Source: Planctomycetota bacterium
GTDB lineage: Bacteria; Planctomycetota; UBA1135; GCA-002748355
Length of the DNA: 64,000 bases
Reading direction: 5' to 3'
Assembly (NCBI GenBank): GCA_011321845.1
Contig: DROQ01000211.1
Location: forward strand, 21,911 to 85,910
In this document: positions 2,541-62,874 of the stretch, in pieces
Position numbering within the stretch: the stretch's first letter is position 1
Layout: each line of letters starts with the position of its first letter
The notes under the pieces: generated by a model
The model's database searches: none
What the model saw: the letters and a program-made list of their open reading frames with translations, nothing else
Told to the model about the DNA's origin: nothing
Position numbers and translations under genes: made by a program

Positions 2541-3548
2541 TCAACATTGCCCTGGGAGGGTCTCCCGCAACTCCTCGAGGTGGCTGGATTCGCCCAGGGC
2601 AACGAGGATGTCTCCGCTCTCGAGGGTGGTTTCACTGGAGGGGTTGAAGCGCATGACCCCATCGGGCTTGCGGATGGCGACAATGATCAGGCCGTAGCGG
2701 GAGCGGAGGTCGGTCTTGGAGAGGGGGACCCCGTCATAGCTGGAGCAGGGAGGGATCTTGATTTCGTCCAGGCGAAGGGCGTGGGCGCCTTTGCCCGTAG
2801 TGAGGTCGATGAAATCCATGACATTGGGGAGGAGGACGGCCTGGGCCATCCGGCGTCCGCCGATGAGGGTGGGCAGGATGACGACGTTCGCCCCGGCGCG
2901 GCGCAGCTTGCGCTCGGCTCCCTCGTCGGTTCCCCGGGCGACGATCTGGAGTTTACGGTTGAGGAAGCGGGCGGTCAGGGTGAGGAAGACGCTCTCCGCG
3001 TCGGTGGGCATGGCAGAAACGAGGACTTCGGCCCGTTCGATGCCCGCCTGGTTGAGGAGGGGCTCCTCGGTGGCATCTCCCTGGAGGGTGAGGTAGCCCT
3101 CGCGGCGCAGCTCGGCGAGGACTTCTTCGTCCCGGTCCAGGCAGACGACCTGCTTGCCGTGTTCGCGGAGTTCCTTGGCGATCATCTTGCCGATGCGCCC
3201 GATGCCGCAGACGATGATGTGACCCTTGAGGTTTTGGATTTGTTTTTGCATGCGCCGAAGCTCCAGGATGTTGGCGAGTTCTCCCTCGACGATGTGGGAG
3301 ACGGCCAGGCTGAAGGAATACGCGGCTGTGCCCACCCCGAGGCCGATGAGACCGATGAGGACGAGGCGGCCTTCGGAGCCCAGGTCGACGGGGGGGGCCT
3401 CGAAGCCTACGGTGGAGATGGTGATGATGACGTAGTAGAGGGCTTGGACGAAATCGAGGTGGTGGCGGAAGTGGAAGTAGGAGACTCCTGCGACCAGGAT
3501 GAGGAAGAGGAGGAGGAGAGCCCTGAGGAAGGTTCGATTCGACCGCAC
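2541..3548 (-). CDS. 2-TM cation channel with RCK/TrkA domains (MthK/Kch-like), non-canonical filter TVGFE
   Basis: GTG start 3548; two TM helices flanking pore sequence ITISTVGFEAPP; Rossmann motif IIVCGIGRIGKMIAKEL (TrkA-N) and a C-terminal TrkA-C-like region. Confidence 0.8.
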   Translation of the reverse strand: MRSNRTFLRALLLLFLILVAGVSYFHFRHHLDFVQALYYVIITISTVGFEAPPVDLGSEGRLVLIGLIGLGVGTAAYSFSLAVSHIVEGELANILELRRMQKQIQNLKGHIIVCGIGRIGKMIAKELREHGKQVVCLDRDEEVLAELRREGYLTLQGDATEEPLLNQAGIERAEVLVSAMPTDAESVFLTLTARFLNRKLQIVARGTDEGAERKLRRAGANVVILPTLIGGRRMAQAVLLPNVMDFIDLTTGKGAHALRLDEIKIPPCSSYDGVPLSKTDLRSRYGLIIVAIRKPDGVMRFNPSSETTLESGDILVALGESSHLEELRETLPGQC

Positions 3549-3597
3549 GGGGGGGATCTTAGCTTGGGGAGGGGGGGGACGCTTGGATGTTTTCTTG

Positions 3598-3863
3598 GGA
3601 AACGCCGGGAGGGGTTTTCTACCGGGGTTTTTTACGTGAAACGCCTGGAGGGGTTTTCTACCGGGGTTTTCTACGCAAAACGCCTGGAGGCGTTTCCTAC
3701 GTGAAACCCCTGGAGGGGTTTCCTACGCAAAACCCCTGGAGGGGTTTTCTACGTGAAACGCCTGGAGGCGTTCCCTACCGGCGTTCCCTACCGGCGTTCC
3801 CTACTGACGTTTCCTGCTGGCGTTCCCTACTGGGGTTCCTTATTGGGTTTTCTGGTGGGTTCC
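3598..3863. repeat. Tandem palindromic hairpin array, locus 1 (about 6 x 26-nt units plus about 7 x 13-nt half units)
   Basis: Units GAAAC[G/C]CC-TGGA-GG[C/G]GTTTC-CTACGY read directly; followed by tandem GGCGTTCCCTACC half units that decay into the 3' end of the 3827-5581 CDS. Confidence 0.95.
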
Positions 3864-21065: not shown

Positions 21066-21737
21066 ATGAGCGCAGAAAAAAAACAAGCTCCGAGCGTTTC
21101 CCGCTTCTACCAGGCCATGAAGGCCTCGGGGGAAGAGTACGGGAAAAACAGCCCTTCTCCGGATGTGGGGGACAACGACTTGATCCAGGGGGCGTTGGAT
21201 GGGGACTTGGATTCTTTTGCAGGCTTGATGCAGCGGTATGAGAGGCGGGCCTTTTGGTGCGCTTTTCACGTATTGGGGGAGGTTGAGGAGGCGCGGGATG
21301 TGGTGCAGGATGCCTTCCTCAGAGTGCATCGGAGTCTGGAGCGCTTTGATTTCGATCGCAATTTTTATACCTGGCTCTATCGCATCGTGACCAATCTCTC
21401 GATCGACCGTCTCCGCAAGCGGAAGAACGAGGTGACCCTGACGATTGACGATGAGCGGGCCGCGGTGGTCCCGGACCCCACAGTTCTGGGTTCGACACCC
21501 GAGGAGCAGATGGTGTGCCGGGAACGGTCCTGGAAAGTGCGCAAGGTTCTGGACAGCCTCCCTGCGGCCTTTCGGACGGTGATGGCGCTCCGGGATCTTC
21601 ATGGACTTTCCTGCCGAGAGATCGGCCCCATCCTGGATTTGACCTATGCGACGGTCCGTTGGAGGTTGCACAAGGCCAGGCGCTTGTTCCGCGATGCCTG
21701 GGAGCGGGCTGAAATGGAGGGAGGGGAATCCCAATGA
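21066..21737 (+). CDS. ECF-type RNA polymerase sigma factor
   Basis: Region 2 DVVQDAFLRVHRSLERFD..FYTWLYRIVTN and region 4 LRDLHGLSCREIGPILDLTYATVRWRLHKAR. Confidence 0.9.
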   Translation: MSAEKKQAPSVSRFYQAMKASGEEYGKNSPSPDVGDNDLIQGALDGDLDSFAGLMQRYERRAFWCAFHVLGEVEEARDVVQDAFLRVHRSLERFDFDRNFYTWLYRIVTNLSIDRLRKRKNEVTLTIDDERAAVVPDPTVLGSTPEEQMVCRERSWKVRKVLDSLPAAFRTVMALRDLHGLSCREIGPILDLTYATVRWRLHKARRLFRDAWERAEMEGGESQ

Positions 21738-49223: not shown

Positions 49224-50162
49224 CTAGGGCTTGAGGAGGGATCCCTGAGGGTCTCCCTTGCCACGTCGGAGCCAGAGGAGGACCAGGCCCACCAGGATCA
49301 TCGCGAAACAGAGTTCCTGGCCCCGGGAAAAGGACCAGAGAACGAGCCCGAGCTGGGGATCCGGCTGCCGGAAAAACTCGATGAAAAAGCGGAAGATCCC
49401 GTAACCGAGCAAAAAGAGGGCTCCATAGGTCCCTGTACTCAAGGGTTTTCCGGCTTTTTGGCGGTTTCGGTAAATCCCCCAGAGGATCAGGAAGAGGAGG
49501 AGGCCCTCTCCAAGGGCTTCATAGAGCTGGGAAGGGTGCCTGAGGGGAACCTGGGACTTGATCCGGAGCCATTCTCCGTCTCCCAGGGCCTTGAGGATCC
49601 GAAGCTCCTGCTCCCGCTTTTCGAGGCCGCCCAGGCCCAATAACTGGGCGGCGACAGGGTCGGTGGGAAAGCGCATCCCCCATGGGAGGTCCTTGCCCGC
49701 GATGCGCCCGTAGAGTTCTCCATTGATGAAATTGGCGATGCGTCCGAAGAAAAGTCCGGGGGGACCCACCAGGGCGAGGGCGTCCGTCAGTTTCCAGAAG
49801 GAGAGTTTGTTGCGCCGGGCGAAGAGCAGGGTCGCGACAAAGATTCCGATCAGGGCTCCGTGGAAGGCCATTCCTCCCCTCCAGACCTGGATGATCCGAT
49901 GCAAGGGCCAGAGGAGGGAAGGGTCATAGAAGAGGATGTAGCCCACCCTGCCCCCGATCATGACTCCCAGGATCAAGTAGAGGATGAGATCCGAAACCTT
50001 CTCCTCGGCGAGGGGGAGGAAACCGCTCCGGCAGAGGCGCACAAGGAGGTAATGGCCCAGGACAAAACCGACCAGGTACATGAGGCCGTACCAGCGGATG
50101 TCGATGGGACCGGGAAAATCGATCAGGACCGGGTCGATGCCCGGAAAAAGAATCTCACCCAT
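49224..50162 (-). CDS. lgt: Prolipoprotein diacylglyceryl transferase
   Basis: IRWYGLMYLVGFVLG, GGMAFHGALIG, GRIANFINGELYGR. Confidence 0.93.
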   Translation of the reverse strand: MGEILFPGIDPVLIDFPGPIDIRWYGLMYLVGFVLGHYLLVRLCRSGFLPLAEEKVSDLILYLILGVMIGGRVGYILFYDPSLLWPLHRIIQVWRGGMAFHGALIGIFVATLLFARRNKLSFWKLTDALALVGPPGLFFGRIANFINGELYGRIAGKDLPWGMRFPTDPVAAQLLGLGGLEKREQELRILKALGDGEWLRIKSQVPLRHPSQLYEALGEGLLLFLILWGIYRNRQKAGKPLSTGTYGALFLLGYGIFRFFIEFFRQPDPQLGLVLWSFSRGQELCFAMILVGLVLLWLRRGKGDPQGSLLKP

Positions 50163-50313
50163 GGAGTGGAATTTAACGATCCTTCCTCCTCGTTACACGT
50201 GGAGAAAGGATCGGATTCACTGGGAGCGATTCGCTCGGTCTCTCGGGAGCCTAGGGCTCCTGTGGAGGCGGGGGAAACTCCGTGCCCCCGCTCGGCAAAG
50301 GTCTTGTCCAGAA

Positions 50314-50628
50314 TCAGTCCTGGACTTCGAAGAGGTTTTTTCTGCGCTTTCGCGCCAAGAAGCCGAGTCCCGCGAGCGCGGCAAAGGAGAGGCTGATCGG
50401 CTCGGGAGTGGGGTTGCCCTGCCCATGGCCTCCTCTGTGTCCTTTTTTATGGCCATGGCGACCATGTTTGTGTCTCTTGTGCCAGCGATGATGGTATCTC
50501 CTCCAGCGGCCTCTTCCACCACCGTGGTGGGACAAGTCCATCTCGACTGCTTCTGGAACGACGACTTCGGCCGGAGGGAGGGCCGGAGAGAACGATAGGC
50601 ACAAGTTGAGGGCCAAGGTTGCGATCAT
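50314..50628 (-). CDS. Small His/Arg/Lys/Gly-rich protein with PEP-CTERM sorting signal
   Basis: AAGGA RBS 9 nt upstream; N-terminal hydrophobic leader; HHGGGRGRWRRYHHRWHKRHKHGRHGHKKGHRGGHGQG; C-terminal PEPISLSFAALAGLGFLARKRRK (PEP motif, TM, basic cluster). Confidence 0.7.
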   Translation of the reverse strand: MIATLALNLCLSFSPALPPAEVVVPEAVEMDLSHHGGGRGRWRRYHHRWHKRHKHGRHGHKKGHRGGHGQGNPTPEPISLSFAALAGLGFLARKRRKNLFEVQD

Positions 50629-50778
50629 GAAAATTGGTCCTTGAAAGAAGTGGGGAATGGGGAAAGACCCCGAACACTCTTATTCTAATTCATGATCGTT
50701 TCTTTGGCCGAAAAGCGAAAGAAAGAAAGATGGAAAAGGGGATTTTTTTTCTTCCCTATTTCTTTTGATCTGGGAGTT

Positions 50779-52824
50779 TTAACGGATGTTCTTGTCTGAT
50801 GGTTTCCAGGAATGCTCCCAAATCTTGCTGCCATCGGAACGATAAGCGCCGAAGACGACTCTGCGTTCTTTTCCCTTGCCCATTACTTGGACACGCCCGA
50901 AACTCCTCTCCTTGGTGATCCAAGTTCCCGGGACCCGGATGGGATTGGCCTTTTCCTTGGGGAACCCGCCCACTCCCGCACCCAACGGGCTGCTCGTGAA
51001 TTCGGGCCAGAGGGGTCCATCGGAGCTGTGGCGGTAGGCCAAGAGTTCGCTGGCATGGCGATCTCCAGAAAGAAATACGATTCCTCCAATTTCGTTTCTA
51101 TGGATGAAATCAAAAAGTCGCTTTTGTTCCCTTGGGAAGGCACCAAATCCCTCAAAGTAAACAAGAGGGTTGGTCATCTGCCCGCCATTCACGATGAATT
51201 TAAAACGAGCTTTGGAGCTCAATAGGCTGTCCATCAACCATTGCAATTGCCTTGCCCCCAACATGGCCTTCGTGCGGGAGTTTTGGCTCCGGTTGGGGCT
51301 CCGAAAACTGCGGTCGTCGAGCATGAAGAATTCACAATCGCTCCAGGTAAAGTTGTAGAAGCAGCCTGGGGCCTTTGCCGTTCCATAGCGAGGCTGGGGC
51401 CAGTAGTCCTTGAAGATCCGCAGGGAATCCTCCTTGAGGCGGAAGCTACGGTCGGAGTCGTTGGGGCCATAGTCGTGGTCGTCCCAGATCGCGTAGTGCT
51501 GGGTGGAGGCCCAGAAGGCTTGGAGGGGGGCAAAAGAGCGGCTGCGGCGATACCTCCGACGGATCCCCTGGGGGCTTAGCCAGTCAGGTTCCCGCAGGTA
51601 GCAGTTATCCCCCAGCCAGAGCATGAAGTCGGCCCTCTGCTTGGCCATGGCTTGGAAGATTTCGTAGCCTCCCCCATAGGGCTTCCCCGGACGGTCGCTC
51701 TCCTTCTCGTTGATATAAAGACAGGAGCCAAAGAGAAAGTCCAGATCGGGGGCAGGTCCCCGGTACCGCCATTGCTTTTGAGTCCGAAGCCGGCCTTCGC
51801 CGGCGGGGAGGCCGTCCAGCAGGATGCGGTACTGGTATGTGGTACCGGAGCCAAGTTCCTCCAGGACGATCCTGGCGATGCAGTCTCCGTCCCGGCTGGT
51901 GCGGAATTCCCGGCTGAGGCTAGGGGCCGATGGGGAACCTTGCTTCCAGTAAGCCACACGGACACGGGCGGGTTTCCTGGTCTGCACCCAGATGCAGGCC
52001 TGGTGCATTGCCGCCCAGGCGTTCATGGGACCTGCGCGCAGCCTTCTTTCGGGGCGCTTTCCTCCATCCGGGCGGAGCGCTTCCATCCGGCCGTTGCGGG
52101 GATTCCAGGAGCCATACATGGGGTTTGGGAGGACGATCCAGGTCCTGCCCCAGTGCCTTGAGAGTCCCTTTTGCTTCCGTTGACCTGGGGAGAGGAAGTC
52201 GCCCTCGCTGTCTCCCAGGAGGAGGAGGATCCGATGGCGCGCGGCGACCCTGCGCCTTCGAGCACCCTTGTCCGAGGTCTTGTCCTTGAGCAAGAAGGCA
52301 GAGTCATCCCGGGTAAAGGGGAAGCCCAGCTGCTCCATGTTTTCCCGCGTGGGGGCGAGGAGGGACTTGTGCCGGTTGCTGACATAGAACACCTTCAGCC
52401 CCTTCCTGGCCGCCTCCTGGCAGAAGGCGACGGCCCCGGGGATCGCGCGGGCCTTCTTCTCACGGACCCAGGCGGCCCAGGAGGCAGGGTTGTAGGATTC
52501 CCCGCTCAGATGCAGGCGGGCCTGGTACGCCGAGTTGTCGAGCAAGGTTTCGTCCAGGTCGCAGATGATGGCCGGGCCGGCCCCTTTTGGGATCCTGGTC
52601 TGTTCCAACGCGGCGGTCCAATGGGGATCTCCGAGTCCCCGCTCGAGTTGGATCCGGGCCAGGGCGAAGGCCTGGAGGCAGAGCGCCCGATACTCCGGGC
52701 TCTTTTGGACCCAGAGGGTCGTTTGAAGGCCTCGCGGCTCCAACCCTTGGGAGGAGGAAGTCCTCAGTGCCGTCGCGGAAAAGAGGATGGGGAGGAGGAG
52801 AGGGAGGGAGGTTCGTGCATTCAT
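50779..52824 (-). CDS. Secreted fusion: class C/e(P4)-type HAD acid phosphatase plus PhoD-like metallophosphatase
   Basis: Signal peptide; ICDLDETLLDNS, YVSNR, GDSEGDF, LPNPMYGSW (e(P4) family) then WLGDNCY, IWDDHDYGPND, FLSGDRHASEL (PhoD-like). Confidence 0.85.
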   Translation of the reverse strand: MNARTSLPLLLPILFSATALRTSSSQGLEPRGLQTTLWVQKSPEYRALCLQAFALARIQLERGLGDPHWTAALEQTRIPKGAGPAIICDLDETLLDNSAYQARLHLSGESYNPASWAAWVREKKARAIPGAVAFCQEAARKGLKVFYVSNRHKSLLAPTRENMEQLGFPFTRDDSAFLLKDKTSDKGARRRRVAARHRILLLLGDSEGDFLSPGQRKQKGLSRHWGRTWIVLPNPMYGSWNPRNGRMEALRPDGGKRPERRLRAGPMNAWAAMHQACIWVQTRKPARVRVAYWKQGSPSAPSLSREFRTSRDGDCIARIVLEELGSGTTYQYRILLDGLPAGEGRLRTQKQWRYRGPAPDLDFLFGSCLYINEKESDRPGKPYGGGYEIFQAMAKQRADFMLWLGDNCYLREPDWLSPQGIRRRYRRSRSFAPLQAFWASTQHYAIWDDHDYGPNDSDRSFRLKEDSLRIFKDYWPQPRYGTAKAPGCFYNFTWSDCEFFMLDDRSFRSPNRSQNSRTKAMLGARQLQWLMDSLLSSKARFKFIVNGGQMTNPLVYFEGFGAFPREQKRLFDFIHRNEIGGIVFLSGDRHASELLAYRHSSDGPLWPEFTSSPLGAGVGGFPKEKANPIRVPGTWITKERSFGRVQVMGKGKERRVVFGAYRSDGSKIWEHSWKPSDKNIR

Positions 52825-53657
52825 CTTTGATGGGGACCCGCTCGGAGGGTTTTGAAAATACGTCTTCGAATCCGCAAATAGCCCTCATCCTCAGGGGCGA
52901 GGGCGAGAGCCCTTGTGATCGCGAGCAATGCCTGGTTGGGTCGTTTCCTGGCCATCTGGGTCTCGGCGATCCTGGCGAACCATCCAGGCTGATCGGGGTG
53001 CTTGTCGGCGAGTCGTCTCAGGGCGACCAGGGCCAGGTCGTGGGCTCCGGTGGTCGTCGCGGTGGCGGCGAGGTCCCTGAGGATCCCATCGGATTCCCCG
53101 TCCAGTTCGAAGGCTTTCCGGAGGGCCCCGAGAGCTTCCGTGGGTCTTCCCTCCTGGAGCAGGATACGCCCCTTCTGGTGCCAGGCGAAAGAACTCCCTG
53201 GGTCCCGGAGGAGAGCTTTCTGGACTGTCCTTTTTGCGAGTTGGATCCGCCCCTGTTTCGCCTCGAGTCGGGCCAGGAGGACAAAGGGGAAGGCGCGGTG
53301 GGGTGCCTTTTCCGCCGCACGTTGGTAGAGGCTTTGGGCCTGTTTCGCATCGCCCCTCTTCTCCGCGAGGATGCCGAGGTTGGCCAGGGCGTCGGCGGCG
53401 AGAGGGTTGATCTCAAGGCAGCGCCCAAAGGCGCGTTCCGCCCTCTTTTCGTGCCCCAAAAGGGAGTAGAGGCGCCCAAGGTTGTACCAAGAGTCCTCGT
53501 CTCTCGGGTCGGCCGCCACCGCCTTCTGGTAGAGGTCGATGGCCTCCCTTGTCTTGCCGTCCCGATCGAGGGCGAAGGCCTTTTCGAAGAGGGTGGGTCC
53601 CGCACGGCCCCCAAAACACCCCACCAATAGCAATAGGGAGAGGGGAAGGCCTCGCAT
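52821..53657 (-). CDS. TPR-repeat lipoprotein
   Basis: Lipobox LLLLVGC; repeated TPR consensus (AIDLYQKAVAADPRDEDSWYNLGRLY etc.); overlaps both neighbours. Confidence 0.85.
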   Translation of the reverse strand: MRGLPLSLLLLVGCFGGRAGPTLFEKAFALDRDGKTREAIDLYQKAVAADPRDEDSWYNLGRLYSLLGHEKRAERAFGRCLEINPLAADALANLGILAEKRGDAKQAQSLYQRAAEKAPHRAFPFVLLARLEAKQGRIQLAKRTVQKALLRDPGSSFAWHQKGRILLQEGRPTEALGALRKAFELDGESDGILRDLAATATTTGAHDLALVALRRLADKHPDQPGWFARIAETQMARKRPNQALLAITRALALAPEDEGYLRIRRRIFKTLRAGPHQR

Positions 53658-54715
53658 CAGTTTTTCCTCCGTGGCGGCAGGAGCCCGCCCTGGTCGAGGT
53701 CGCGTTGCAGGGACCTCCTGGCGGCCGCTTCGGCGGCGTCGGGGTCTTCGCTTCCCCCGAAGAGAACCTGGCTGGGGTCGGCCTTGATCCTCGCCATCGC
53801 GAGCTTCATCTCCTCTGCCGCCACGCGAAGGTTGTGGAGGAGGAGAAAGAGGTCCCGGTCGTTACGAACAAGGATGTCATCCACGCGGTCCAGGAGGCCA
53901 TCCACCTTGGTCTTGGCCTCGATGAGGTTTTTTCTCAGGCCCTCCAGGAGTCGTTCGCCGCTGTCCAGGCTGCCCAGCAGTTTCGGCTGGATCCTTGCAC
54001 TCATCTTTTTCCATTGTTCCAGGAGGGAGAGGGAATGGTCCACCATCTTGGCCGAGGACTCGAGGACGGCCTGGAGTTTAGGATCCCAGCTTTGCAGCAC
54101 CTTCTTGCCTTCCGCAACCAGGGCACTGGTCTCCTGTGCGGTCTTGGCTCCTTCCCGGGTCATGCTTCGTAGGTCCTCGATGAGGCCGGGCAGAGAAGCC
54201 TTGCCTTCTTCGGGAGTGAGGAGCAGGTCCAGATGCCCGAGAAGGCTCTCCAAGCGCTTCGCCATCTCTTCGCCGCGTTCCAGGAAGGTGTCGATCCCTC
54301 CCAGAGTCGCCAGCAGAGTGTCGCCGCTCTTCAAACGGGTCGCCCCCTGGGGAGCCGCGTGGATGTCCACATAGCGTGCACCCAGGAGGCCATCCGAGCG
54401 GACCTCGATCTTGGATTCTTTGGCGATGGGCGCCTTGGGGTCCACGGCGATGGTCATCTTGACCCGGAACTCGGGGTAACTCCTCTTGCGCTCTCCCTCA
54501 CTCCTCCAATGGATCCGAAGAACTTCTCCGACCTTGAGCCCTTCGATTCGAACGGCTGTGCCAGGATCGAGCGGGAGGCCCCGCCTCAGGAGGAGGTGGA
54601 CCTGTACACGTTTGTCGAAGAAACCTTTGAGCTTCCCTCCCCAGAGAACGAAACCCAGGAAAAGGAAGAAGGAGAGGAAGACGAAGGTGCCGGCGATGAG
54701 GTCTTTGGCGTGCAT
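53657..54715 (-). CDS. mlaD: MlaD/MCE-domain protein with ~200-aa helical C-terminal extension
   Basis: N-terminal TM, MCE block LDPGTAVRIEGLKVGEV..KIEVRSDGLLGARYVDI, then long heptad-like helical region. Confidence 0.85.
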   Translation of the reverse strand: MHAKDLIAGTFVFLSFFLFLGFVLWGGKLKGFFDKRVQVHLLLRRGLPLDPGTAVRIEGLKVGEVLRIHWRSEGERKRSYPEFRVKMTIAVDPKAPIAKESKIEVRSDGLLGARYVDIHAAPQGATRLKSGDTLLATLGGIDTFLERGEEMAKRLESLLGHLDLLLTPEEGKASLPGLIEDLRSMTREGAKTAQETSALVAEGKKVLQSWDPKLQAVLESSAKMVDHSLSLLEQWKKMSARIQPKLLGSLDSGERLLEGLRKNLIEAKTKVDGLLDRVDDILVRNDRDLFLLLHNLRVAAEEMKLAMARIKADPSQVLFGGSEDPDAAEAAARRSLQRDLDQGGLLPPRRKN

Positions 54716-54718
54716 ATG

Positions 54719-55531
54719 TCAGTCTCCCTCCAAGAGGAGTTTGCGAAAGTCCATGGTGGATTCTTGGAAGCCGAGTGGCCCATCCTTGCGCCCTTCCACG
54801 AATTGCCGGACCACAGGGTCTTCGCATTCTCGGATTTCCTGTGGGCTCCCATCAAAGAGAATCTCACCCTTGTAGAGCATGATCAAGCGACTGGCGATGC
54901 GGTAGGCGCTCTGCATATCATGTGTCACGACCAGCATGGTCACATCATGGGTGGTGGCCTGCTTGAGAAGAAGGTCATCGATCCCCGCAACCGTCACGGG
55001 GTCGAGCCCTGCCGAGGGCTCGTCGATGAAGACAAGGGCCGGATCCAGGGCCATGGCACGGGCCAAGGCCGCGCGTTTGATCATCCCTCCGCTGAGCTCG
55101 TCGGGAAACCTCTCCGAAGCGGCGAAGAGCCCTACCTGATTGAGCTTCATCCCCACGAGGATGTCGATGGTCTCGTCGGCGAGGCCCGAGTGGCGCCGGA
55201 TCGGAAGGGCGACGTTGTCGTGAATGCTCATGGAGCTGAAGAGCGCTCCCCCCTGGAACATGACGCCGAATTTGAGGCGGAGTCGGTCCATGGCCTTGCG
55301 GTCCTTGGGCCTAAGGACCTCTCCCAGGAGCCGGATTTCGCCTTCCTCGGGGATGGTGGCTCCGATGAGACAGGAGAGCAGGGTGGACTTGCCTCCTCCC
55401 GACGGTCCCAGGATCGCGAGCCGCTCTCCAGGGTGGACGCAGAACGAGATCCTGTTCAAAACGCGCCTCCCGTCGAATTCCTTGACGAGGTCGCGAACCT
55501 GGATCACTGGGTCTGTCTCGGCGTAGCTCAT
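54719..55531 (-). CDS. mlaF: MlaF-type ABC transporter ATP-binding protein
   Basis: Internal ATG 55531 (ATGA with mlaE); GPSGGGKSTLL, LSGGMIKRAALARA, VFIDEPSAGLD. Confidence 0.9.
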   Translation of the reverse strand: MSYAETDPVIQVRDLVKEFDGRRVLNRISFCVHPGERLAILGPSGGGKSTLLSCLIGATIPEEGEIRLLGEVLRPKDRKAMDRLRLKFGVMFQGGALFSSMSIHDNVALPIRRHSGLADETIDILVGMKLNQVGLFAASERFPDELSGGMIKRAALARAMALDPALVFIDEPSAGLDPVTVAGIDDLLLKQATTHDVTMLVVTHDMQSAYRIASRLIMLYKGEILFDGSPQEIRECEDPVVRQFVEGRKDGPLGFQESTMDFRKLLLEGD

Positions 55532-56289
55532 ATCGTAAAGTAGGCGAAAACCGCGTCGGCCGCGAGAACAGCTACCATGCTGAGGACGACGGCGCGCATC
55601 GTCGCTGTTCCCACGCTTGAGGCACCTCCCTTGAGGTGAAAGGCTTCGAAACAACAGATGTGGGCGATGAGCGCCCCAAAGACTGCGCTCTTGAGCCCTC
55701 CGACGAGGATGTCCGAGGTTTGGATCCAGTCCTGGGCGACTCCCATGAAAGTCATTTGGGGGACGTCGAAGAGGCTCGCGCCCGTGAGGAGGGCGAAGAC
55801 GAGAGCGGAGATGTCGCTGAGGGTAGTGAGGCAGGGGAGGACAATGATCAGCGCGAGGAAGCGCGGGACGACGAGGAATTGAATGGGGTCGATGGCCATG
55901 GTCTCGGCGGCGAGGATTTCGTCGTTGACTTTCATCGTGCCCAGTTCAGCGGTGAAGGCGGCGCCGACCCGCCCTGAGACGATGATGGCCGTCATCAGGG
56001 GGCCCATTTCGCGAGTGACGGAGACGCCGACCAGGGCACCCACCATCTCCACCCTCCCGAACTGCGCCAACTGAAACGCCGTTTGAAGAACAAGGATGAT
56101 CCCGACCAGACCCGCGAAGAGCAGGACGATGGGGGTGCTCATCAGCCCCGCTCGGAGAATCTGCTCGATCAGCAGGGGGATGCGAAAGCGCCATTCTTTT
56201 TTGGGGGCCACTGCAACCGAGGTGGCGGTCCGGCAGAAGAAGTGGAAGGAGCGCCCTACCTTCTCAACGGCTTTTAGGGGGGACAACAA
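55528..56289 (-). CDS. mlaE: MlaE-type ABC transporter permease
   Basis: VSVTREMGPLMTAIIVSGRVGAAFTAELGTMKVNDE matches the MlaE core; TTG start 56289. Confidence 0.85.
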   Translation of the reverse strand: MLSPLKAVEKVGRSFHFFCRTATSVAVAPKKEWRFRIPLLIEQILRAGLMSTPIVLLFAGLVGIILVLQTAFQLAQFGRVEMVGALVGVSVTREMGPLMTAIIVSGRVGAAFTAELGTMKVNDEILAAETMAIDPIQFLVVPRFLALIIVLPCLTTLSDISALVFALLTGASLFDVPQMTFMGVAQDWIQTSDILVGGLKSAVFGALIAHICCFEAFHLKGGASSVGTATMRAVVLSMVAVLAADAVFAYFTI

Positions 56290-56296
56290 GGGGAGA

Positions 56297-56632
56297 TCAA
56301 AGGCCTTCGGGGATTTGGTCGTCCAGGTGGTCGCGGATGTCGAAGAACTCCTCGAGCTTGGCGAGTTCGAGGATCATCCGCACTTGTGGGGAAGGAGAGA
56401 GCAGCACAAAGGGGACTTGGATCCGTTTTGCCCAACGGAAACCTTCGATGAGGACTGCGATCCCCGAGGAATCCATGTGCGTGACTCCTGACAGGTCCAG
56501 GGCGAGGGGACGTTTTTTGCTCAGGAGGATGTGTTCCAATTGTCCTCGCAGCTCGGGGGAGGTGGCGAGGTCCACATCCCCCTGGATGGCGAGAGTGACC
56601 CAAGCCGCCGTCTCGTTCTTATGAATTTCCAT
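56297..56632 (-). CDS. STAS-domain protein (anti-sigma antagonist / MlaB-like) with phosphorylatable DSSG motif
   Basis: Internal ATG 56632; LDLSGVTHMDSSGIAVLIEG equals the SpoIIAA/RsbV phosphoserine loop; 7 nt upstream of mlaE. Confidence 0.85.
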   Translation of the reverse strand: MEIHKNETAAWVTLAIQGDVDLATSPELRGQLEHILLSKKRPLALDLSGVTHMDSSGIAVLIEGFRWAKRIQVPFVLLSPSPQVRMILELAKLEEFFDIRDHLDDQIPEGL

Positions 56633-57029
56633 CGCCGCTTCTCCTTGTGCGCTCCAGGGCCAATGTGTTCCAGCCGTCCTTGCTGCGCGAAGAACAGATT
56701 TTGTCGAAGAAGGCCTTGATGATGTGGACGCCGATCCCACCCGGGCTGACCTTTTGCAAAGGCCGCCCTTTGCAGCAGGTGAAGTCAAAAGGTTTCCCGC
56801 GATCCCGGATCCAGACCTTGAGGCTCTCATGGTCCTCCTGGACCTCGATTTCAATGGGGCCGGGGGCGTCCTGGGGGTAGGCGTGCCGGATGACATTGGA
56901 GCTGGCTTCGCAGAGGGCGAGACAGAAAGCGTCTAGTTCCTGCTCGCTGAGCCGCCCCCGGAACTCTTCGGTGATTTTATCCCGGAGGCTCTTTAAGCAA
57001 GGCGGCGTGGCTTGGCATCGGAAAATCAT
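56619..57029 (-). CDS. RsbW/SpoIIAB-type serine protein kinase (HATPase_c_2)
   Basis: N box EASSNVIRHAY, DRGKPFD, GGIGVHIIKAFFD; overlaps STAS start by 14 nt; ATG 57029 (TTG 57044 alternative). Confidence 0.8.
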   Translation of the reverse strand: MIFRCQATPPCLKSLRDKITEEFRGRLSEQELDAFCLALCEASSNVIRHAYPQDAPGPIEIEVQEDHESLKVWIRDRGKPFDFTCCKGRPLQKVSPGGIGVHIIKAFFDKICSSRSKDGWNTLALERTRRSGDGNS

Positions 57030-57123
57030 CGCTCTGGCATCCAAGACTACCCGGAGGGCCGAGGGTTTCTCTTCTCTTTTTTTGGGATCCTTTTTCGGGG
57101 GAAAACTGTATACCTGGACTTTA

Positions 57124-57144
57124 ACCTTCTAGTCACTGGAAGGT
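57124..57144. promoter_or_regulatory. CueR/MerR-type operator dyad upstream of copA
   Basis: ACCTTCT-AGTCACT-GGAAGGT, one mismatch from a perfect 7-7-7 dyad; resembles the E. coli PcopA CueR box ACCTTCC-N7-GGAAGGT (from memory); 25 nt upstream of copA ATG; cueR encoded in the same operon. Confidence 0.6.
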
Positions 57145-57168
57145 TTGCGGCCAAGGGAGAACTCCGAA

Positions 57169-59424
57169 ATGACCCAACTCGTTCCAAAGCCACCGTCGAG
57201 CACAGAGCCCCGAGAGGGTGGGGCCAGGGTTTCGTCCCCGCCCTCTCCCCGAGCGTTTCGGTTCAAGATCACGGGGATGACCTGCGCGACCTGCGCCGGG
57301 CGGATCGAAAAGGTTCTGCGGCGCCTGGACTCAGTCCTCTCGGCTCAGGTCAACTTGGCAACCGAGGTGGCGACGGTAGCCATCGGGCCCGGTCCTGGCG
57401 AGGAGGGAGCCGATGCCCTGATCGCCGCCATCGAGAGGGCGGGCTTCGGGGCACGGCTCGCGGACTCCGAAGACAAGGTCGCCGAGGAGCGCGAACAGCG
57501 GCAGCGGCGGCGGGAAAGCTGGATTCTTCTGGTTTCCGTTCTGCTGACTCTCCCCCTCGTCGCCCCCATGCTCCTCCATCCCTTTGGGCTTGTCTGGGCG
57601 CTCCCCCCCTGGCTGCAACTCGCCCTGGCGACACCGGTCCAATTCCTGGTGGGTTGGCGCTATTACCAAGGCGGCTGGGCGGCCCTTCGGGCGCGCACGG
57701 GCAACATGGATCTTCTTGTGGCCCTCGGCACCAGCGCTGCCTATGGGCTGAGCGTCTGGAACCTCGCCCAGGGGAAGCCTCACCTCTACTTCGAGGCTTC
57801 GGCGGCGGTCATCACCCTGGTCCTCTTCGGCAAACACATGGAGGCCCGAGCCAAGCGAAGCGCGACGGCTGCCATCCGGGCTCTCATGGCCCTGCGGCCC
57901 GATACGGCCAGGGTTCTCCGCGAGGGGGAGGCGATCGAGATCCCTGCCGAAGCCGTGGGCAAGGGCGAGGTCGTGCTCGTCAAACCCGGGGAGCGCATCC
58001 CCATGGACGGGGTGATCCTGCGCGGGGGTAGCCAGGTCGACAACTCCATGCTCACCGGGGAGAGCATGCCCGTTCGAGTGGAGGTGGGGGACGAGGTCAC
58101 GGGGGGGGCGATCAATGGGGAGGGGCTCCTCGAGGTCCGGGTCACCAGGGTGGGAGAAGAATCGACCCTGGCCCAGATCGTTCGGATGGTCGAGGGAGCC
58201 CAAGCCAAAAAAGCGCCCATCCAGCGGGTCGTGGACCGGGTCGCGGCGGTCTTCGTGCCGGCTGTCATTCTGGTTGCGCTTGGGACCCTGGTCGCTTGGA
58301 TGATGGCCGGAGTGGGGACCGAGGTGGCCATCGTCAACGCGGTCGCCGTGCTCGTGATCGCCTGTCCCTGCGCCCTTGGTCTTGCGACCCCGACGGCCTT
58401 GATGGTGGGGACCAGCGCGGCGGCGCGGGCGGGCATCTTGATCAAGGACGCCGAAGCCCTGGAGCAGTCCCACAGGGTGCAGACCGTGGTCTTCGACAAG
58501 ACCGGGACACTGACCCAGGGCCGGCCCATGGTGCAGGGCATGGTGGCGCTTCAGGGGACGGAGAGGGAGTTGCTCTACTGGGGGGCTTCGGCGCAGCAGG
58601 GGAGCGAGCATCCCCTGGCCAGGGCCCTCCTCAAGGAAGCGGAGAGGCTCGAGATCCCGCTGGGCCCGCTCACCTCCTTCAAGGCCCTGATGGGCAAGGG
58701 GCTCGAGGCCGTTGTGGGCGAGCGCCCCATTCTGGTCGGCAGCCAAAAGCTGATGGAGGAGAGGGGCATCTCCCTGGAGGATCTGCCTCCCGAGTTGGAG
58801 GCCTGGGAGGCCCGGGGGATGACCCTGGTGTTCGTGGCCCAGGGGGGCGAAGAGAGGCGGTTGCTCGGCGTTTTCGGGCTTGCCGATGCCTTGCGTCCTT
58901 CCTCGGCGCAGGCGGTCGCTTTTCTCCAGAGCCAGGGGATCGAAGTCGTGATGCTGAGTGGAGACCACCGTGCGGCCGCCGAGTTGGTGGGAAAGCGGCT
59001 TGGGGTGGATCGCACGATCGCCGAGGTGCTCCCAGGGGAAAAAGCCGATGTGGTCAGGGAACTGTCCCAGTCCGGTCGCGTGGTCGCCATGGTGGGGGAC
59101 GGCGTCAATGACGCGCCCGCGCTGGCGGCAGCCCAGGTGGGGCTTGCCGTTTCGAGCGGGACGGACGTGGCCATGGCCACAGCCTCGGTGACCCTGATGC
59201 GGCCCGATCCGCTGCTGGTGGGGGACTGTCTCTCGGTCTCCAAAGCCACCACGCGCAAGATCCACCAGAACCTGTTCTGGGCCTTTGTCTACAACATTGT
59301 CGCCATCCCCTTCGCGGCCATGGGCTACCTCAACCCCGTGATCGCGGGCGCCGCCATGGCCATGTCGAGCGTGAGCGTTGTGAGCAATTCGCTGCTCCTG
59401 CGCCGCTGGAGGCCGAGTCGATGA
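57169..59424 (+). CDS. copA: Copper-translocating P1B-type ATPase
   Basis: [18 protein letters not shown] in [27 protein letters not shown]; ATG 57169 after GGGAGA. Confidence 0.95.
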
Positions 59425-59843
59425 AGACCCAGGACAAAGGCCGCCGTTTGACGATCGGGCGCCTCGCCGAGGAGAGCGGGGTCCCGACCAAGACGATTCG
59501 TTATTACGAGGAAGTGGGGCTGCTTCCCCAGCCCGTCCGTGGAAGCAATGGCTACCGTCGCTACGAGGAGAGTGCCGTTCACATGCTGCGCTTCGTGAGC
59601 CGGGCGCGGGAGATGGGCTTTTCGATGGAGGAGACCCGGGAGCTGCTTGCCCTTTGGCTGGACAAGGGGCGTAAGAGCGCCGATGTGCGGGCGATCGCCT
59701 TGCGTCACCTTGCGACCATTACTCATAAGATTTCCAAGTTGCAGGGGCTTCAGGCCACTCTGCAGCACCTCGTGCGCTGCTGCCACGGGGACGACCGGCC
59801 TGATTGTCCGATTTTGGAGGCTCTAGCGGAGGAGGAGAGATGA
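59421..59843 (+). CDS. cueR: MerR-family Cu(I)-responsive regulator
   Basis: [27 protein letters not shown]; metal loop [14 protein letters not shown] matches E. coli CueR C..GDD..DCPI(I/L)E. Confidence 0.88.
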
Positions 59844-60097
59844 AGACTTATGGAATCAAGGGAATGACTTGTGAGGGTTGCGTTGGGGCGGTGACGAAGG
59901 CGCTTCAGGCGGTTTTGGGGGATGTGGAGTTTGAGGTTTCTTTGGCGGAGAACTGTGTGAAGGTGAAGGGGGAGCATGATCCGGAGAGGGTGAGGGAGGC
60001 GGTTGAGGGGGCGGGGTTTGAATTTGGGGGGGAGGGGGGGCTGGAAACACCTGGAGGTGTTTCCTACGGAAAACGCCTGGAGACGTTTTCTACTTAA
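59840..60097 (+). CDS. copZ: CopZ-like heavy-metal-associated chaperone with repeat-encoded C-terminal tail
   Basis: ATGA-coupled to cueR; [18 protein letters not shown]; last ~18 codons ([18 protein letters not shown]) lie inside hairpin array 3. Confidence 0.8.
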   Translation: MKTYGIKGMTCEGCVGAVTKALQAVLGDVEFEVSLAENCVKVKGEHDPERVREAVEGAGFEFGGEGGLETPGGVSYGKRLETFST

Positions 60098-60205: not shown

Positions 60206-62428
60206 CTATTTGGGGGTGTGGGGGACGGTTTGGAAGAGGAGGACGAGGGCGCGTTGGAGGACGCGGCGGTCCTTGTCATCGATGCTGCCCTTTTGGACGA
60301 TCTTGTCGACTTGGGAGAGGAGGGCGGCGAAGGAGGGGTTGGCGCGGGCGAAGTTGGGGTATTCGCGGTGTTGGAGGCATTCCTTCAGGATCTTGCGCAT
60401 TTGGAGGGCGTCGCTGAGGCGGGCGCTGGGTTTGGCGAGGAAGGGGAGGGGGGCGCGGCGCTCGAGGAGGCCTTGGAGAAGGAGTCGGGAGAGGCGCAGG
60501 ACGCGGGCCATCTTGGCGTAATCGAGGTTGCGGGGCTGGTCGCTCGGGCGGTGGTAATACCAGGGGGTCGCTGAGCTGACGAAGAGGTAGGGGACCTTTT
60601 TGGCCCGAAAGGACATGTAGTCGCTGCGGGCGAGGGACGGGCCGAAGGGCTCCAGGATGTAGTTGCCGAGAGGAAGGATCTGGAAGGGTTCGCCCTTGAA
60701 CTTGGGTTGGATCTTTTGGATCAGGGTCTCCAGGGCGGGGCTGTGTTCACTGCCCATCAGGTAGATGTCGCCTTTGCGCCAGGGGAGGAAGTTTCCGCCG
60801 ACCAGGTCGTAGATCAGGGCGAAGCGGATGCGCGCGCAGGGGATCACCTCGTGGGAGACGAAGCGACGGGAGCCGACGAGTCCCTTTTCCTCTGCGTCGA
60901 AGAAGACGAAGGCGAGGTGGTAGGGGAGCTTGTGCTTTTGCGGGGCGAAGGCGGCGGCCAGGGCGAGGGTGACAGCGACTCCGGAGGCGTTGTCGTCCGC
61001 GCCGGGGTAGTAAGTCCTGGCGCGCTTGCCGAGGTGGTCGTAGTGGGCACCGATCAGGAGGTAGTCCTTGGCGTCTTTGTTCCCCGGGAGGATGCCCACG
61101 AGGTTGCGGCAGCGGGCGCGTCCATAGCGGAATTCATGGACATAGCCGGCTCCTTCCTTTCCGCGAACACCAGGTTCGAGGCCGAGGGCCTCGATGCGCT
61201 GGAGGAGCCAGTCGCCGGCCTTGCGCCCCCCGGGGGTGCCGGCGCCGCGGCCTTGGAATTCGGGAGAGGCCAGCTTGGAGACATCCGCTCGGAGCGCGGC
61301 CTCGAGTTTGGTGGGAGACTTCTGTTGAGGAGGGACGAGGAGGGCGAGCAGGCGGCGGCTCAGGGGTTTGAGCCTGGCGTACTCGCAATTGCTCATGAGG
61401 GCGACGCCGCTGTGGAGTTCGGGAAGGGCGAGAAGCCAGGTCCGGGTCTTTTCCTGAGCGCCTGCGTGCTCCACCAGCCGTTTGCCGGCGTAGCGACCGA
61501 GGGCGAAGCCCAACCCGTAACGCGTCCGCTTGCCATTCTTCAACGCGGGGCTGGTCCAGAGGGTCTCCCAACTCTTCTTTTTGAGCAAGGATGGGCTTCC
61601 CCAGGCTGCGCCGAAGCGCGCGAGGTCCACGACATGGGACAGGAACCCGCCCCCCGGCAGCTTCCAGCTCACGTCCGTGTTGCTGGAGGGGAAGGGCTCT
61701 CCCTTTTTTCCGAGCCGCTGGTAGCCGACCGCCCGCCCGGGGATGTCCTTCCACTGGTAATCGGGCTCCAGGCTGGAGAGGCCGAGGGGGAGCTTGATCC
61801 TCTTTCGCACCTGTTCCCAGTAGGGGACGCCTCCCGCCCGGCGGAGTACCGCGCCTGCCAGGATGAAGCCATGGGTGGAGTAGCTGTATTTGGTCCCGGG
61901 CTCGGCGATCAGCGGGGAGTCCTTGAAGGTGTCGAGGGCCAGGATGAGGTTGGCGAAGGGATGCTTCTCTTTGTAGCTGCGCTGGGTCCGGATGACCTTG
62001 CCGTTTCGGTAGTGCACGATCCCCGCCTGGTGGGCCAGGAGGCGCCGCATGGTGATGGGCCAAGGTTTCTTGGGAAACTCCGGGACATAGCTGCGGATGT
62101 CCTTGTCCAAATCCAGCTTGCCCTGCTCCACCAGCTGCATGGCAGCGATGGCGGTCAGAGGTTTTGAGATCGATGCCCAGCGATACTTGGTCTCCTTGCT
62201 GGCGGGGATCCTGGCCTCGCGGTCGGCGAAGCCATAGCCCTTGGCGTAAACGACCTTGCCTCCTCGAAACAAGGCGACCGAGAGTCCGACAAGGTTTTGC
62301 CGCCGCATACTCCGCTGCGCCAGCGCATCCACCTTTGCGGGGAGGGTTGGAGCTGCTTCTTGTGGAGGGGATCCCTGGGGAGCCAGGGCCATGAGAGGAA
62401 GGAGCGAGGAGAGGATGGTCGGCATCAT
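60206..62428 (-). CDS. Secreted fusion: serine hydrolase (class C beta-lactamase/PBP-like) plus M28 peptidase
   Basis: Internal ATG 62428 gives leader MMPTILSSLLPLMALAPQ; SxxK SISK in YRWASISKPLTA; C-terminal GAHYDHLG, GADDNASGVA, FFDAEEKGLVGS (M28). Confidence 0.8.
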   Translation of the reverse strand: MMPTILSSLLPLMALAPQGSPPQEAAPTLPAKVDALAQRSMRRQNLVGLSVALFRGGKVVYAKGYGFADREARIPASKETKYRWASISKPLTAIAAMQLVEQGKLDLDKDIRSYVPEFPKKPWPITMRRLLAHQAGIVHYRNGKVIRTQRSYKEKHPFANLILALDTFKDSPLIAEPGTKYSYSTHGFILAGAVLRRAGGVPYWEQVRKRIKLPLGLSSLEPDYQWKDIPGRAVGYQRLGKKGEPFPSSNTDVSWKLPGGGFLSHVVDLARFGAAWGSPSLLKKKSWETLWTSPALKNGKRTRYGLGFALGRYAGKRLVEHAGAQEKTRTWLLALPELHSGVALMSNCEYARLKPLSRRLLALLVPPQQKSPTKLEAALRADVSKLASPEFQGRGAGTPGGRKAGDWLLQRIEALGLEPGVRGKEGAGYVHEFRYGRARCRNLVGILPGNKDAKDYLLIGAHYDHLGKRARTYYPGADDNASGVAVTLALAAAFAPQKHKLPYHLAFVFFDAEEKGLVGSRRFVSHEVIPCARIRFALIYDLVGGNFLPWRKGDIYLMGSEHSPALETLIQKIQPKFKGEPFQILPLGNYILEPFGPSLARSDYMSFRAKKVPYLFVSSATPWYYHRPSDQPRNLDYAKMARVLRLSRLLLQGLLERRAPLPFLAKPSARLSDALQMRKILKECLQHREYPNFARANPSFAALLSQVDKIVQKGSIDDKDRRVLQRALVLLFQTVPHTPK

Positions 62429-62874
62429 TGGTCCTTGCGAAAGGGAGAGGGTCCAGGATCTTCGAGCCACTCCTCGAAGATTTTTTTCCAAGGCTCGGGG
62501 ATGGGCTGTTTGCTCATGTGCCGCATGTCCACCGAGACGGTGCGGATACGAGCGACGGCGAGGCGCTGTTTGCCTTGTTCGTCCTTGGACATCCAGAACT
62601 CGAAGTGCACCGAATGCTTGCCCAGTCCGATGATCCGGAGTCCGATCCAGGGCTCGTCCCCGTAGCGAATCTGTCCCAAAAAATCCGACTCGATGTGCAC
62701 GGCGGGCAGCCCGAAATGCTGCTTGTGCAAGACCTCCGCGTAGGGGATGCCCAGGGCGTCCTGCCACCAATCCTCGAAGACCTGGTGAAAATAATGAAAA
62801 AAACTCGGGTAATAGGCGATTCCCGCGTCATCGATGTCGCCGAACCGGTATCGGAATTGCTTCGCGAACTTCAT
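62425..62874 (-). CDS. Hotdog-fold acyl-CoA thioesterase (4HBT/YbgC-like)
   Basis: ATG 62874; YRFGDIDDAGIAYYPSFFHYF active-site-like N-terminus; ATGA-coupled to downstream hydrolase. Confidence 0.6.
   Translation of the reverse strand: MKFAKQFRYRFGDIDDAGIAYYPSFFHYFHQVFEDWWQDALGIPYAEVLHKQHFGLPAVHIESDFLGQIRYGDEPWIGLRIIGLGKHSVHFEFWMSKDEQGKQRLAVARIRTVSVDMRHMSKQPIPEPWKKIFEEWLEDPGPSPFRKDQ

Follow-up and report, generated by a model that had tools for sequence, protein, structure and literature searches.

Post-translational control of the lipid traffic between bacterial membranes is largely unknown. In Escherichia coli, residue Thr52 of the STAS protein MlaB lies at the centre of its interface with the ATPase MlaF; the substitution T52E weakens the binding to MlaF and T52A cripples the ATPase activity (PMC7367683, PMC5016091). 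Phosphorylation of MlaB at this residue is a hypothesis raised in 2016 and 2020, neither a kinase nor phosphorylation in vivo being known (PMC7367683, PMC5016091). Partner switches with outputs other than a sigma factor have been described in other bacteria, the target being a glycosyltransferase in the case of HenR/All4160/Alr3423 of Anabaena (bioRxiv 10.64898/2026.04.08.717354), the biofilm polysaccharide pathway in the case of SypE/SypA of Vibrio fischeri (PMC4517449, PMC10120452), and the production of gene transfer agent in the case of RbaV/W/Y of Rhodobacter (PMC3999984). Here we describe a locus that brings these two themes together, a set of seven tightly packed genes on the minus strand at positions 50779-57044 of a 64,000-nucleotide stretch (hereafter the window) of contig DROQ01000211.1 from a Planctomycetota bacterium, in which a kinase gene and a STAS gene are followed by genes for MlaE, MlaF, MlaD, a lipoprotein and a secreted phosphatase.

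Both partner switches with non-sigma outputs and a STAS subunit sitting on MlaF are already known, and it is the joining of an RsbW-type kinase or a PP2C phosphatase to an Mla/MCE transporter that is apparently undescribed. No description of such a linkage was found in the freely searchable full-text literature, including a phylogenomic survey of Mla systems (PMC10665443), a phylogenomic study of mce genes (PMC1810536), a review of STAS-only proteins (PMC8256260) and a study of the specificity of PPM phosphatases (PMC11418112), subscription-only work lying outside this reach. An earlier sequence-only reading of the window had named no described system with this kinase/STAS-Mla architecture, which agrees with what the searchable literature holds.

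We propose that the operon encodes a partner-switching phospho-module with an MCE-type lipid ATP-binding cassette (ABC) transporter as its output, a proposal to which we assign a probability of roughly 0.6. The transporter would consist of MlaE as permease, MlaF as ATPase, a long MlaD of the needle type and a lipoprotein partner in the periplasm or the outer membrane. Unphosphorylated STAS protein would bind MlaF at its helical subdomain and its C-terminal extension (CTE), as happens with MlaB in E. coli, and would stabilise or activate the ATPase. The kinase, translationally coupled to the STAS protein, would bind the same helical face of the latter and phosphorylate Ser55 of its DSSG loop; the phosphorylated form would bind neither partner, leaving the transporter off. 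A SpoIIE-family PP2C phosphatase with a GAF, REC or FHA-GAF sensor, whose gene stands immediately upstream in roughly half of the related loci and is expected elsewhere in this genome, would reset the switch. The contact between STAS protein and MlaF, its block by phosphorylation and the direction of the effect would follow the examples of E. coli MlaFB and of SpoIIAA-SpoIIAB. The linkage, the gene content, the catalytic and phospho-acceptor residues and the fold assignments are direct observations, given in the following paragraphs. In broader terms, we see about an even chance that this is a widespread and undescribed class of partner switch, in which a GAF-, REC- or FHA-linked PP2C, an RsbW-fold kinase and a DSSG STAS protein exert direct on/off control of an MCE/Mla-type transporter through phosphorylation of an MlaB-equivalent STAS protein in Planctomycetota, Desulfobacterota, KSB1 and many uncultured lineages.

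The seven genes were all recovered at their coordinates in the open reading frame (ORF) list, and the junctions recomputed from these coordinates (-14, +7, -4, +3, -1 and -4 nt) reproduce the packing described in the sequence-only reading, whose domain calls were matched by Pfam for every one of the seven genes. The kinase gene (56619..57044) has a reading frame of 141 amino acids (aa) from a TTG at 57044; its probable start is the ATG at 57029, giving 136 aa, and this is the start used in public annotation for an identical kinase from a Planctomycetes metagenome-assembled genome (MAG). The protein matches Pfam HATPase_c_2 (3.5e-20), and scores 42.6, 34.9 and 32.0 bits with the RsbW/SpoIIAB equivalog models NF003144, TIGR01924 and TIGR01925, short of cut-offs that range from 135 to 155 (for the NCBIfam RsbW model, 42.6 bits against 145). 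Its closest solved structure by sequence is RsbW (6m36, 5.8e-7), and an AlphaFold2 (AF2) model with a predicted local distance difference test (pLDDT) score of 88 has its best fold matches in SpoIIAB (1th8_A, template modelling (TM) score 0.75-0.79), RsbW and UsfX. The N and G boxes noted earlier are present, with residues E46, N50, G102, G103 and G105 invariant and D81 kept in at least 90% of the sequences across 41 relatives. Judged by its modelled fold and its catalytic motifs, this protein is an RsbW/SpoIIAB-type GHKL serine kinase.

The STAS gene (56297..56632, 111 aa) overlaps the kinase gene by 14 nt. Its product matches the Pfam families STAS (1.7e-20) and STAS_2 (9e-15), scores 65.9 bits with the anti-sigma factor antagonist model TIGR00377 (cut-off 53.45), and has its closest PDB matches in TM1442 (4.5e-12) and SpoIIAA (1e-7). 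The translation contains HMDSSGIAVL, the SpoIIAA/RsbV phospho-loop that had been pointed out before, with the DSSG codons at 56462-56473 and the codon of Ser55, the first serine of the loop and the predicted phosphorylation site, at 56468..56470. This D-S-S-G is invariant in 68 of 68 STAS proteins, namely that of the window and 67 from kinase-STAS-Mla loci, and in the window protein it lines up with DSSG in SpoIIAA and with DSAG in TM1442. When E. coli MlaB, with a score and range matching those of 6xbd_K, is aligned to the profile of the linked STAS proteins, its Thr52 falls on Ser55, within a loop that reads DTGG in MlaB as against DSSG in the linked proteins.

The transporter genes follow without interruption. 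MlaE (55528..56289, 253 aa) is a permease with a strong match to Pfam MlaE (PF02405, 2.3e-67; 227 bits against 22.5) and with 215.8 bits in TIGR00056, above the cut-off of 212.2. MlaF (54719..55531, 270 aa) matches ABC_tran at 2.6e-28, and its best NCBIfam match is the MlaF model NF008809, with 206.7 bits and so below the equivalog cut-off of 441; it aligns over its full length with E. coli MlaF (6xbd_I, 8e-53) and with MceG (8fed_G). It has the unusual LSGGM signature in common with E. coli MlaF, and LSGGM or ISGGM is found in 38 of 39 MlaF proteins. The CTE of the window MlaF (54722..54793, residues ~247-270, ...DGPLGFQESTMDFRKLLLEGD) shows Phe/Leu/Leu at the places of Tyr261/Leu265/Leu266, the residues of the C-terminal "handshake" of E. 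coli MlaF that dock in the MlaF-MlaB groove (PMC7367683). An aromatic-x3-hydrophobic tail motif is retained in nearly all of the 38 linked MlaF proteins in an alignment read by eye.

The MlaD gene (53657..54715, 352 aa) encodes a long protein with one MCE domain, which Pfam MlaD (1.8e-11) places at residues 37-119 only. In the AF2 model (mean pLDDT 63) a transmembrane helix (residues 3-33) and a beta domain (37-138, pLDDT ~70-86) are followed by helices from 141 to 341 (pLDDT ~50-60), which bears out the single MCE domain and the ~200-aa helical extension claimed earlier. Because only 8 homologue sequences were available for it, the helical part is of low confidence, and we make use of the secondary structure and the MCE domain alone. 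The best fold matches are Mce1A-F of Mycobacterium smegmatis (8fed), at 1.5e-11 over ~290-355 columns, with a TM score of ~0.3 and a helical pLDDT of only 50-60; the next is E. coli MlaD, over the MCE domain only. On this low-confidence model the long MlaD resembles the needle-forming Mce1 subunits, in line with the tunnel-type MCE protein that the sequence-only reading had expected, and it is probably a hexamer. A "true Mla" system has been defined by an MlaD with a single MCE domain and fewer than ~50 residues of C-terminal helical region (PMC7790496), so that the ~200-residue helix behind the MCE domain excludes the present system from that group. A scan of the seven operon genes and of 10 genes in the flanks detected neither MlaC nor MlaA, as had been stated for the operon.

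Behind MlaD lies the gene of a TPR lipoprotein (52821..53657, 278 aa), which matches TPR families down to 3e-30 and carries the LLVGC lipobox described before. Homologous TPR lipoproteins with a lipobox Cys follow MlaD in loci L001, L008, L009, L015 and L097, and in most other lineages the place is taken by an ABC_trans_aux (PqiC-family) lipoprotein, found in 11 of 17 long loci and also in L014 and L098; in every case the gene after MlaD encodes a lipoprotein of one of the two kinds. A lipoprotein after MlaD, in an operon lacking MlaC and MlaA, is consistent with an MCE system of the needle type that has an outer partner.

The order of these genes is kept far beyond the immediate relatives. 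A word-indexed search for the kinase gave three close relatives, and distant ones were reached by running phmmer over 1.84 billion representatives and by a profile search. In the close relatives (77-80% kinase identity) the whole operon is retained together with lgt, the L28 gene and MoxR, as is expected at such a distance. At 34-41% kinase identity the STAS gene is directly downstream of the kinase gene on 10 of 10 contigs looked up, and the order kinase-STAS-MlaE is found on all eight contigs reaching that far (L008, L009/L010, L011, L014, L015, L016, L097 and L098), with MlaF and MlaD then following wherever the contig and the gene calls allow, and with flanking genes that are unrelated between loci. 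The complete run from the kinase to a TPR lipoprotein is present in L009/L010 (P0153) and in L015 (P0205, a Planctomycetes MAG), in L008 (P0004), where FHA-GAF and SpoIIE come after it, and in L097 (P0158, a Desulfobacteraceae MAG), where a GAF-SpoIIE gene comes before it. The run ends in an ABC_trans_aux gene in L014 (P0154), which begins with a PP2C, and in L098 (P0236, KSB1), which begins with GAF-SpoIIE and has a small ORF between STAS and MlaE. In L016 (P0156) MlaE is followed by two ORFs without a firm Pfam call; L011 (P0005) is cut by the contig end after MlaF, and L013 (P0006) just after STAS. A sharp drop in score after 4-5 clusters had raised the possibility of a kinase family confined to this clade, an idea that was rejected when P0154, P0156, P0158, P0205 and P0236 turned up in the same cassette.

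Metagenomes were also scanned, with an alignment of 41 kinase sequences, and the best 80 loci (28-42% identity to the window kinase) were searched by tblastn with the window proteins. Where at least 450 nt follow the kinase gene (70 metagenomic loci), the STAS gene comes directly after it on the same strand in 58; where at least 1300 nt follow (54 loci), STAS and MlaE are both downstream in 43; and where at least 2400 nt follow (44 loci), MlaF is downstream in 33. No case of a downstream STAS gene without MlaE was seen among the metagenomic loci. Clustered at 70% identity, the kinases of the 63 syntenic loci make up 46 groups, or 31 at 60%; the loci have GC contents from 37 to 73%, and their median spacings (kinase-STAS 9.5 nt, STAS-MlaE 50 nt, MlaE-MlaF 27.5 nt) are operon-like. 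As MlaE genes are a tiny fraction of any genome, the adjacency of kinase, STAS and MlaE is not a matter of chance. The synteny of the kinase-STAS pair with MlaEFD, on which the sequence-only reading had staked its proposal, is kept at 28-42% kinase identity, and the architecture, far from being peculiar to one genome, recurs in Planctomycetota, Desulfobacteraceae, KSB1 and the metagenomic loci.

In many of these loci the protein encoded directly upstream of the kinase is a GAF plus SpoIIE PP2C phosphatase of ~420-460 aa, with SpoIIE matches down to 4e-46. A GAF- or REC-linked PP2C is directly upstream on the same strand in 19 of the 38 syntenic loci with at least 1400 nt upstream and lies elsewhere in the locus in 4 more, giving 23/38 loci with PP2C-domain matches. 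In one metagenomic locus (L044, 10-1683) a single protein of 557 aa combines GAF, SpoIIE (PP2C) and HATPase_c_2 kinase domains. Phosphatase and kinase are thereby united in one chain, as in mycobacterial Rv1364c-type fusions. In L097, a gene for a TolC-like outer-membrane efflux protein (OEP; 2923-4407) is found just upstream of the GAF-PP2C gene, a neighbour that recalls the position of tolC next to mlaEFD reported in Veillonella.

The usual companion of such modules, a sigma factor, was sought in several ways. When 125 ORFs from the neighbourhood of 17 long syntenic loci were assigned to Pfam families, the census included MlaD (14), ABC_trans_aux (11), SpoIIE (9), Response_reg (6) and GAF (5), and no Sigma70 family was among the neighbour families found at least twice. 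A SigB probe had no match in 96 loci (L001-L096), and an RpoE probe had one distant extracytoplasmic function (ECF) match among the same loci and one in the window; that the RpoE probe works can be told from the latter match. This is an ECF sigma-like ORF at 21156-21680 on the plus strand, with 33% identity to E. coli RpoE over 180 aa (6e-21); it lies 35 kb from the operon, and no other sigma-like gene was detected in the window. No sigma factor or PP2C was detected within ~6 kb on either side of the operon, and no second STAS gene within it. The earlier statement that a sigma factor is not adjacent is borne out here and extends to the relatives, where none is recurrent. Taken with the collinear order in divergent lineages, the invariant DSSG and the frequent PP2C, this strongly favours the view of the sequence-only reading that the kinase/STAS switch has a lipid transporter, and not a sigma factor, as its output.

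Several observations weigh against that reading. The STAS protein, by its sequence, groups with SpoIIAA, RsbV and TM1442 and fails the MlaB family model NF033618 (mlaB_1; 27.1 bits, cut-off 90), and a profile of 66 linked STAS proteins matches TM1442 at 2e-27, SpoIIAA and RsbV at ~5e-19, P. aeruginosa MlaB at 2.6e-7 and E. coli MlaB at 7e-5. Because it fails this model, it is by its position, and not by family membership, that the protein may be equated with MlaB. Its binding to MlaF would likewise be predicted, by analogy, from where its gene stands in the operon, from the CTE of MlaF and from the alignment of Ser55 with Thr52. By itself the CTE is no proof of a STAS partner, since a C-terminal extension of MlaF is also reported for a system of Veillonella that lacks MlaB (PMC10665443). 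Kinases of the RsbW/SpoIIAB fold are classically anti-sigma factors, and a single window leaves room for an unlinked sigma target. No PP2C is present in the 64-kb window, and the phosphatase of this lineage must then lie elsewhere. The loci were picked by kinase similarity, so that they represent one kinase subfamily and are not phylogenetically independent. Moreover, 11 of the 54 metagenomic loci are non-syntenic: in L019, MlaF, MlaE and STAS genes lie divergently upstream of the kinase gene; several of the others have a GAF-PP2C adjoining or fused to the kinase and nothing Mla-like, and two show an unrelated context. Among the named taxa the only exception is L099 (a Terrimicrobiaceae MAG, 2191-4431), with a divergent STAS gene, GAF-SpoIIE and kinase and with no Mla genes in its flanks, and the flanks of L063 (6688-8357) and L076 (800-2472), each with GAF-PP2C and kinase, are also free of Mla genes; the module is therefore either detachable, or the transporter is encoded elsewhere in these organisms. 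Finally, it is the gene spacing that suggests a single transcript, a scan of 50100-57400 being uninformative with 0 promoter-like sites and with 10 terminator-like sites against 8.6 +/- 3.3 in shuffled sequence.

The same genes could also be wired the opposite way, the kinase binding and inhibiting the transporter at MlaF or MlaE and the unphosphorylated STAS protein serving only to sequester the kinase, as no subunit of the transporter. In canonical systems it is indeed the kinase that binds the effector, the kinase model is closest to SpoIIAB, RsbW and UsfX, the sequence of the STAS protein is that of a canonical antagonist, with only a remote likeness to MlaB, and the linkage data fit this wiring equally well. 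To our knowledge, however, there is no known case of an ABC ATPase that binds a GHKL kinase. That MlaF carries a STAS subunit is established for the MlaFEDB complexes of E. coli, Pseudomonas aeruginosa and Acinetobacter baumannii (6xbd, 7ch8, 7d06), the window MlaF retains the three CTE residues for docking at the groove between MlaF and STAS, and STAS-MlaE fusions are found in nature (PMC5016091, PMC1810536), and we consider the opposite wiring unlikely. A conventional anti-sigma switch, in which a sigma factor from another locus is sequestered by the kinase while the regulatory genes merely share an operon with an envelope lipid transporter of the regulon, would account for the families and folds of the kinase and the STAS protein, which are those of anti-sigma/anti-anti-sigma pairs, and for the lineages with the phosphatase-kinase module apart from the Mla genes (L099, L063, L076); an ECF sigma-like ORF is also present in the window. 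We know of no RsbW-type kinase that regulates an ECF sigma factor, however, and no SigB/SigF-type sigma was found in the 96 loci probed, nor any recurrent Sigma70 family. The near-overlapping genes kinase-STAS-MlaE are collinear across the range of GC contents and the 46 kinase clusters given above, and co-regulation alone is hard to square with this kept order because the sigma gene, the usual neighbour, is never there; such a switch seems to us quite unlikely. That the STAS protein is a constitutive structural subunit, MlaB-like, next to a kinase gene that is a relic or encodes an ATP or nucleotide sensor without phosphotransfer, is hardly credible: E. coli MlaB does work without any known kinase, but here the phospho-acceptor loop is invariant in all 68 proteins, as against DTGG in E. 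coli MlaB, the ATP-binding residues of the kinase are invariant, and a matching PP2C is found in 23 of 38 loci. The invariant loop and kinase residues, with the co-occurrence of the PP2C, point to purifying selection on a working phosphorylation cycle.

A further alternative concerns the extent of the system and turns on its last gene (50779..52824, 681 aa), which encodes a putative secreted protein with an e(P4)-type HAD-IIIB acid phosphatase fused to a PhoD-like metallophosphatase. Both Pfam domains and a Sec-type signal peptide were found, as the sequence-only reading had it: Acid_phosphat_B at 4.5e-39 (residues 75-240; 134.7 bits against 27), and DUF7800 plus PhoD at 2.8e-27 (residues 384-625; PhoD 96.2 bits against 27). 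The DLDET and DDHD motifs look intact by sequence, and the scores with the equivalog models for e(P4) (TIGR01533, 184.5 bits against 216) and PhoD (33 against 1000) are both below cut-off. All seven genes might form one machine, with a needle MCE transporter that feeds lipid or phosphoester substrates to this enzyme, and the 4-nt overlap of the TPR and phosphatase genes, suggestive of co-translation, speaks for it, together with the arrangement kept in L001 and a PAP2 gene near the cassette of L015. After the cassette, however, the fusion is found only in L001/L007 (one and the same contig, 71% identity), it is absent in L008, L009, L014, L015, L097 and L098 and so from every examinable relative below ~75% identity, and it has no tblastn match in any of the 80 metagenomic loci. 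A machine of seven genes is in our view very unlikely, and the phosphatase was rejected as a general part of it since it is missing from all more distant loci. The conserved unit comprises six genes, from kinase to lipoprotein, usually with a PP2C upstream, and the two earlier notions of a seven-gene unit and of a periplasmic phosphoesterase built into the system have to be given up. The fusion is a lineage-specific passenger, probably co-transcribed with the rest, which in this clade may tie the operon to the turnover of phosphate or phospholipids. The PAP2-family (lipid phosphatase) gene of L015 (13042-13944) lies 0.7 kb after the TPR gene of that Planctomycetes cassette, and the occurrence of two different phosphoesterases after the same cassette may be a coincidence.

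No paralogues of the seven genes were found elsewhere in the window. The upstream flank is a copper gene set (57145-60097, plus strand) of a CopA P-type ATPase, a MerR/CueR regulator and a CopZ-like HMA protein, divergent from the kinase gene. Past these genes, at 60206-62770 on the minus strand, lies the gene of an 854-aa fusion of a beta-lactamase and a peptidase M28, and since the same type of fusion is found directly upstream of the kinase gene in L009/L010, the copper cassette looks like an insertion between the two in this lineage. The downstream flank holds a small His-rich ORF, lgt, the gene of ribosomal protein L28 (at the homologous position in L001), MoxR and a transglutaminase gene. 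The His-rich ORF (50314-50628, minus strand, 104 aa, C-terminus ...PTPEPISLSFAALAGLGFLARKRRKN) is without a Pfam match and has a 96-aa ORF as its counterpart at the same place in L001; its tail, with PEP, a hydrophobic stretch and a basic end, looks like a PEP-CTERM sorting signal. The lgt gene (49224-50162, minus strand) encodes prolipoprotein diacylglyceryl transferase and is located ~0.6 kb downstream of the operon, one of whose own products is a lipoprotein; L001 has this neighbour too. The segment 34001-44000 has a GC content of 0.53-0.555, as against 0.60-0.68 in the rest of the window, and may have been horizontally acquired.

If the proposed phospho-switch on an MCE transporter is true, the cassette would hard-wire a kinase, and in relatives a phosphatase and a sensor, to a transporter that contains a STAS protein, and would do so in many phyla. 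It would supply the missing kinase and phosphatase for the hypothesis of MlaB phosphoregulation, offering natural systems in which that hypothesis can be tested directly with few purified proteins, and it would extend partner switching to the control of an ABC transporter. It would also suggest that many annotations as "anti-sigma factor" or "anti-sigma factor antagonist" in non-model bacteria refer to transporter regulators, and would flag signals sensed by GAF and REC domains as inputs to envelope lipid homeostasis.

The locus can finally be set beside the systems it resembles most. With the MlaFEDB transporters it shares MlaE, an LSGGM-bearing MlaF with the handshake CTE, an MCE protein and one small STAS protein, in which a Ser or Thr at the start of helix alpha-2 occupies the same aligned position (Ser55 or Thr52). 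It differs from them in its gene order (kinase-STAS-E-F-D, as against F-E-D-C-B), in having no MlaC or MlaA in the operon, in the ~200-aa helical extension of MlaD, in the SpoIIAA/RsbV class of its STAS protein, and in its dedicated kinase, with a PP2C in relatives, whereas no such enzymes are known for MlaB. The likeness to the SpoIIAA-SpoIIAB-SpoIIE and RsbV-RsbW-RsbU/P modules of Bacillus resides in a DSSG STAS protein, a GHKL serine kinase of ~140 aa, a sensor-linked PP2C/SpoIIE phosphatase (here in the related loci), kinase and STAS genes that are adjacent and overlapping, and a kinase model that superposes on SpoIIAB and RsbW. Here, however, there is no linked sigma factor and the place of invariant neighbour belongs to an MCE ABC transporter, the scores of the kinase fall far short of the RsbW/SpoIIAB equivalog cut-offs, and the kinase gene precedes that of the STAS protein, in contrast to the order STAS, kinase, sigma in Bacillus.

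The partner switches of Anabaena, Vibrio and Rhodobacter are alike in that an RsbW-like kinase phosphorylates a STAS domain and a SpoIIE-type phosphatase, linked to REC or GAF, reverses this, so as to control a target that is non-transcriptional or unknown and envelope-related, but none of their targets is an ABC or MCE lipid transporter. With mycobacterial Mce1 (8fed/8fef) and PqiABC of E. coli the present system has in common an MCE subunit with a transmembrane helix, one MCE domain and a long helical region, which here too would build a needle across the periplasm, and the single MCE gene implies a homohexamer here, as against six paralogues in Mce1. As in PqiABC, where the ABC_trans_aux protein PqiC fills this place, a lipoprotein gene comes after the MCE gene; relatives of the window carry exactly that family, whereas in this clade a TPR lipoprotein stands in for PqiC. 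The two components that here precede the transporter genes, a STAS subunit and a kinase, are lacking from both Mce1 and Pqi.

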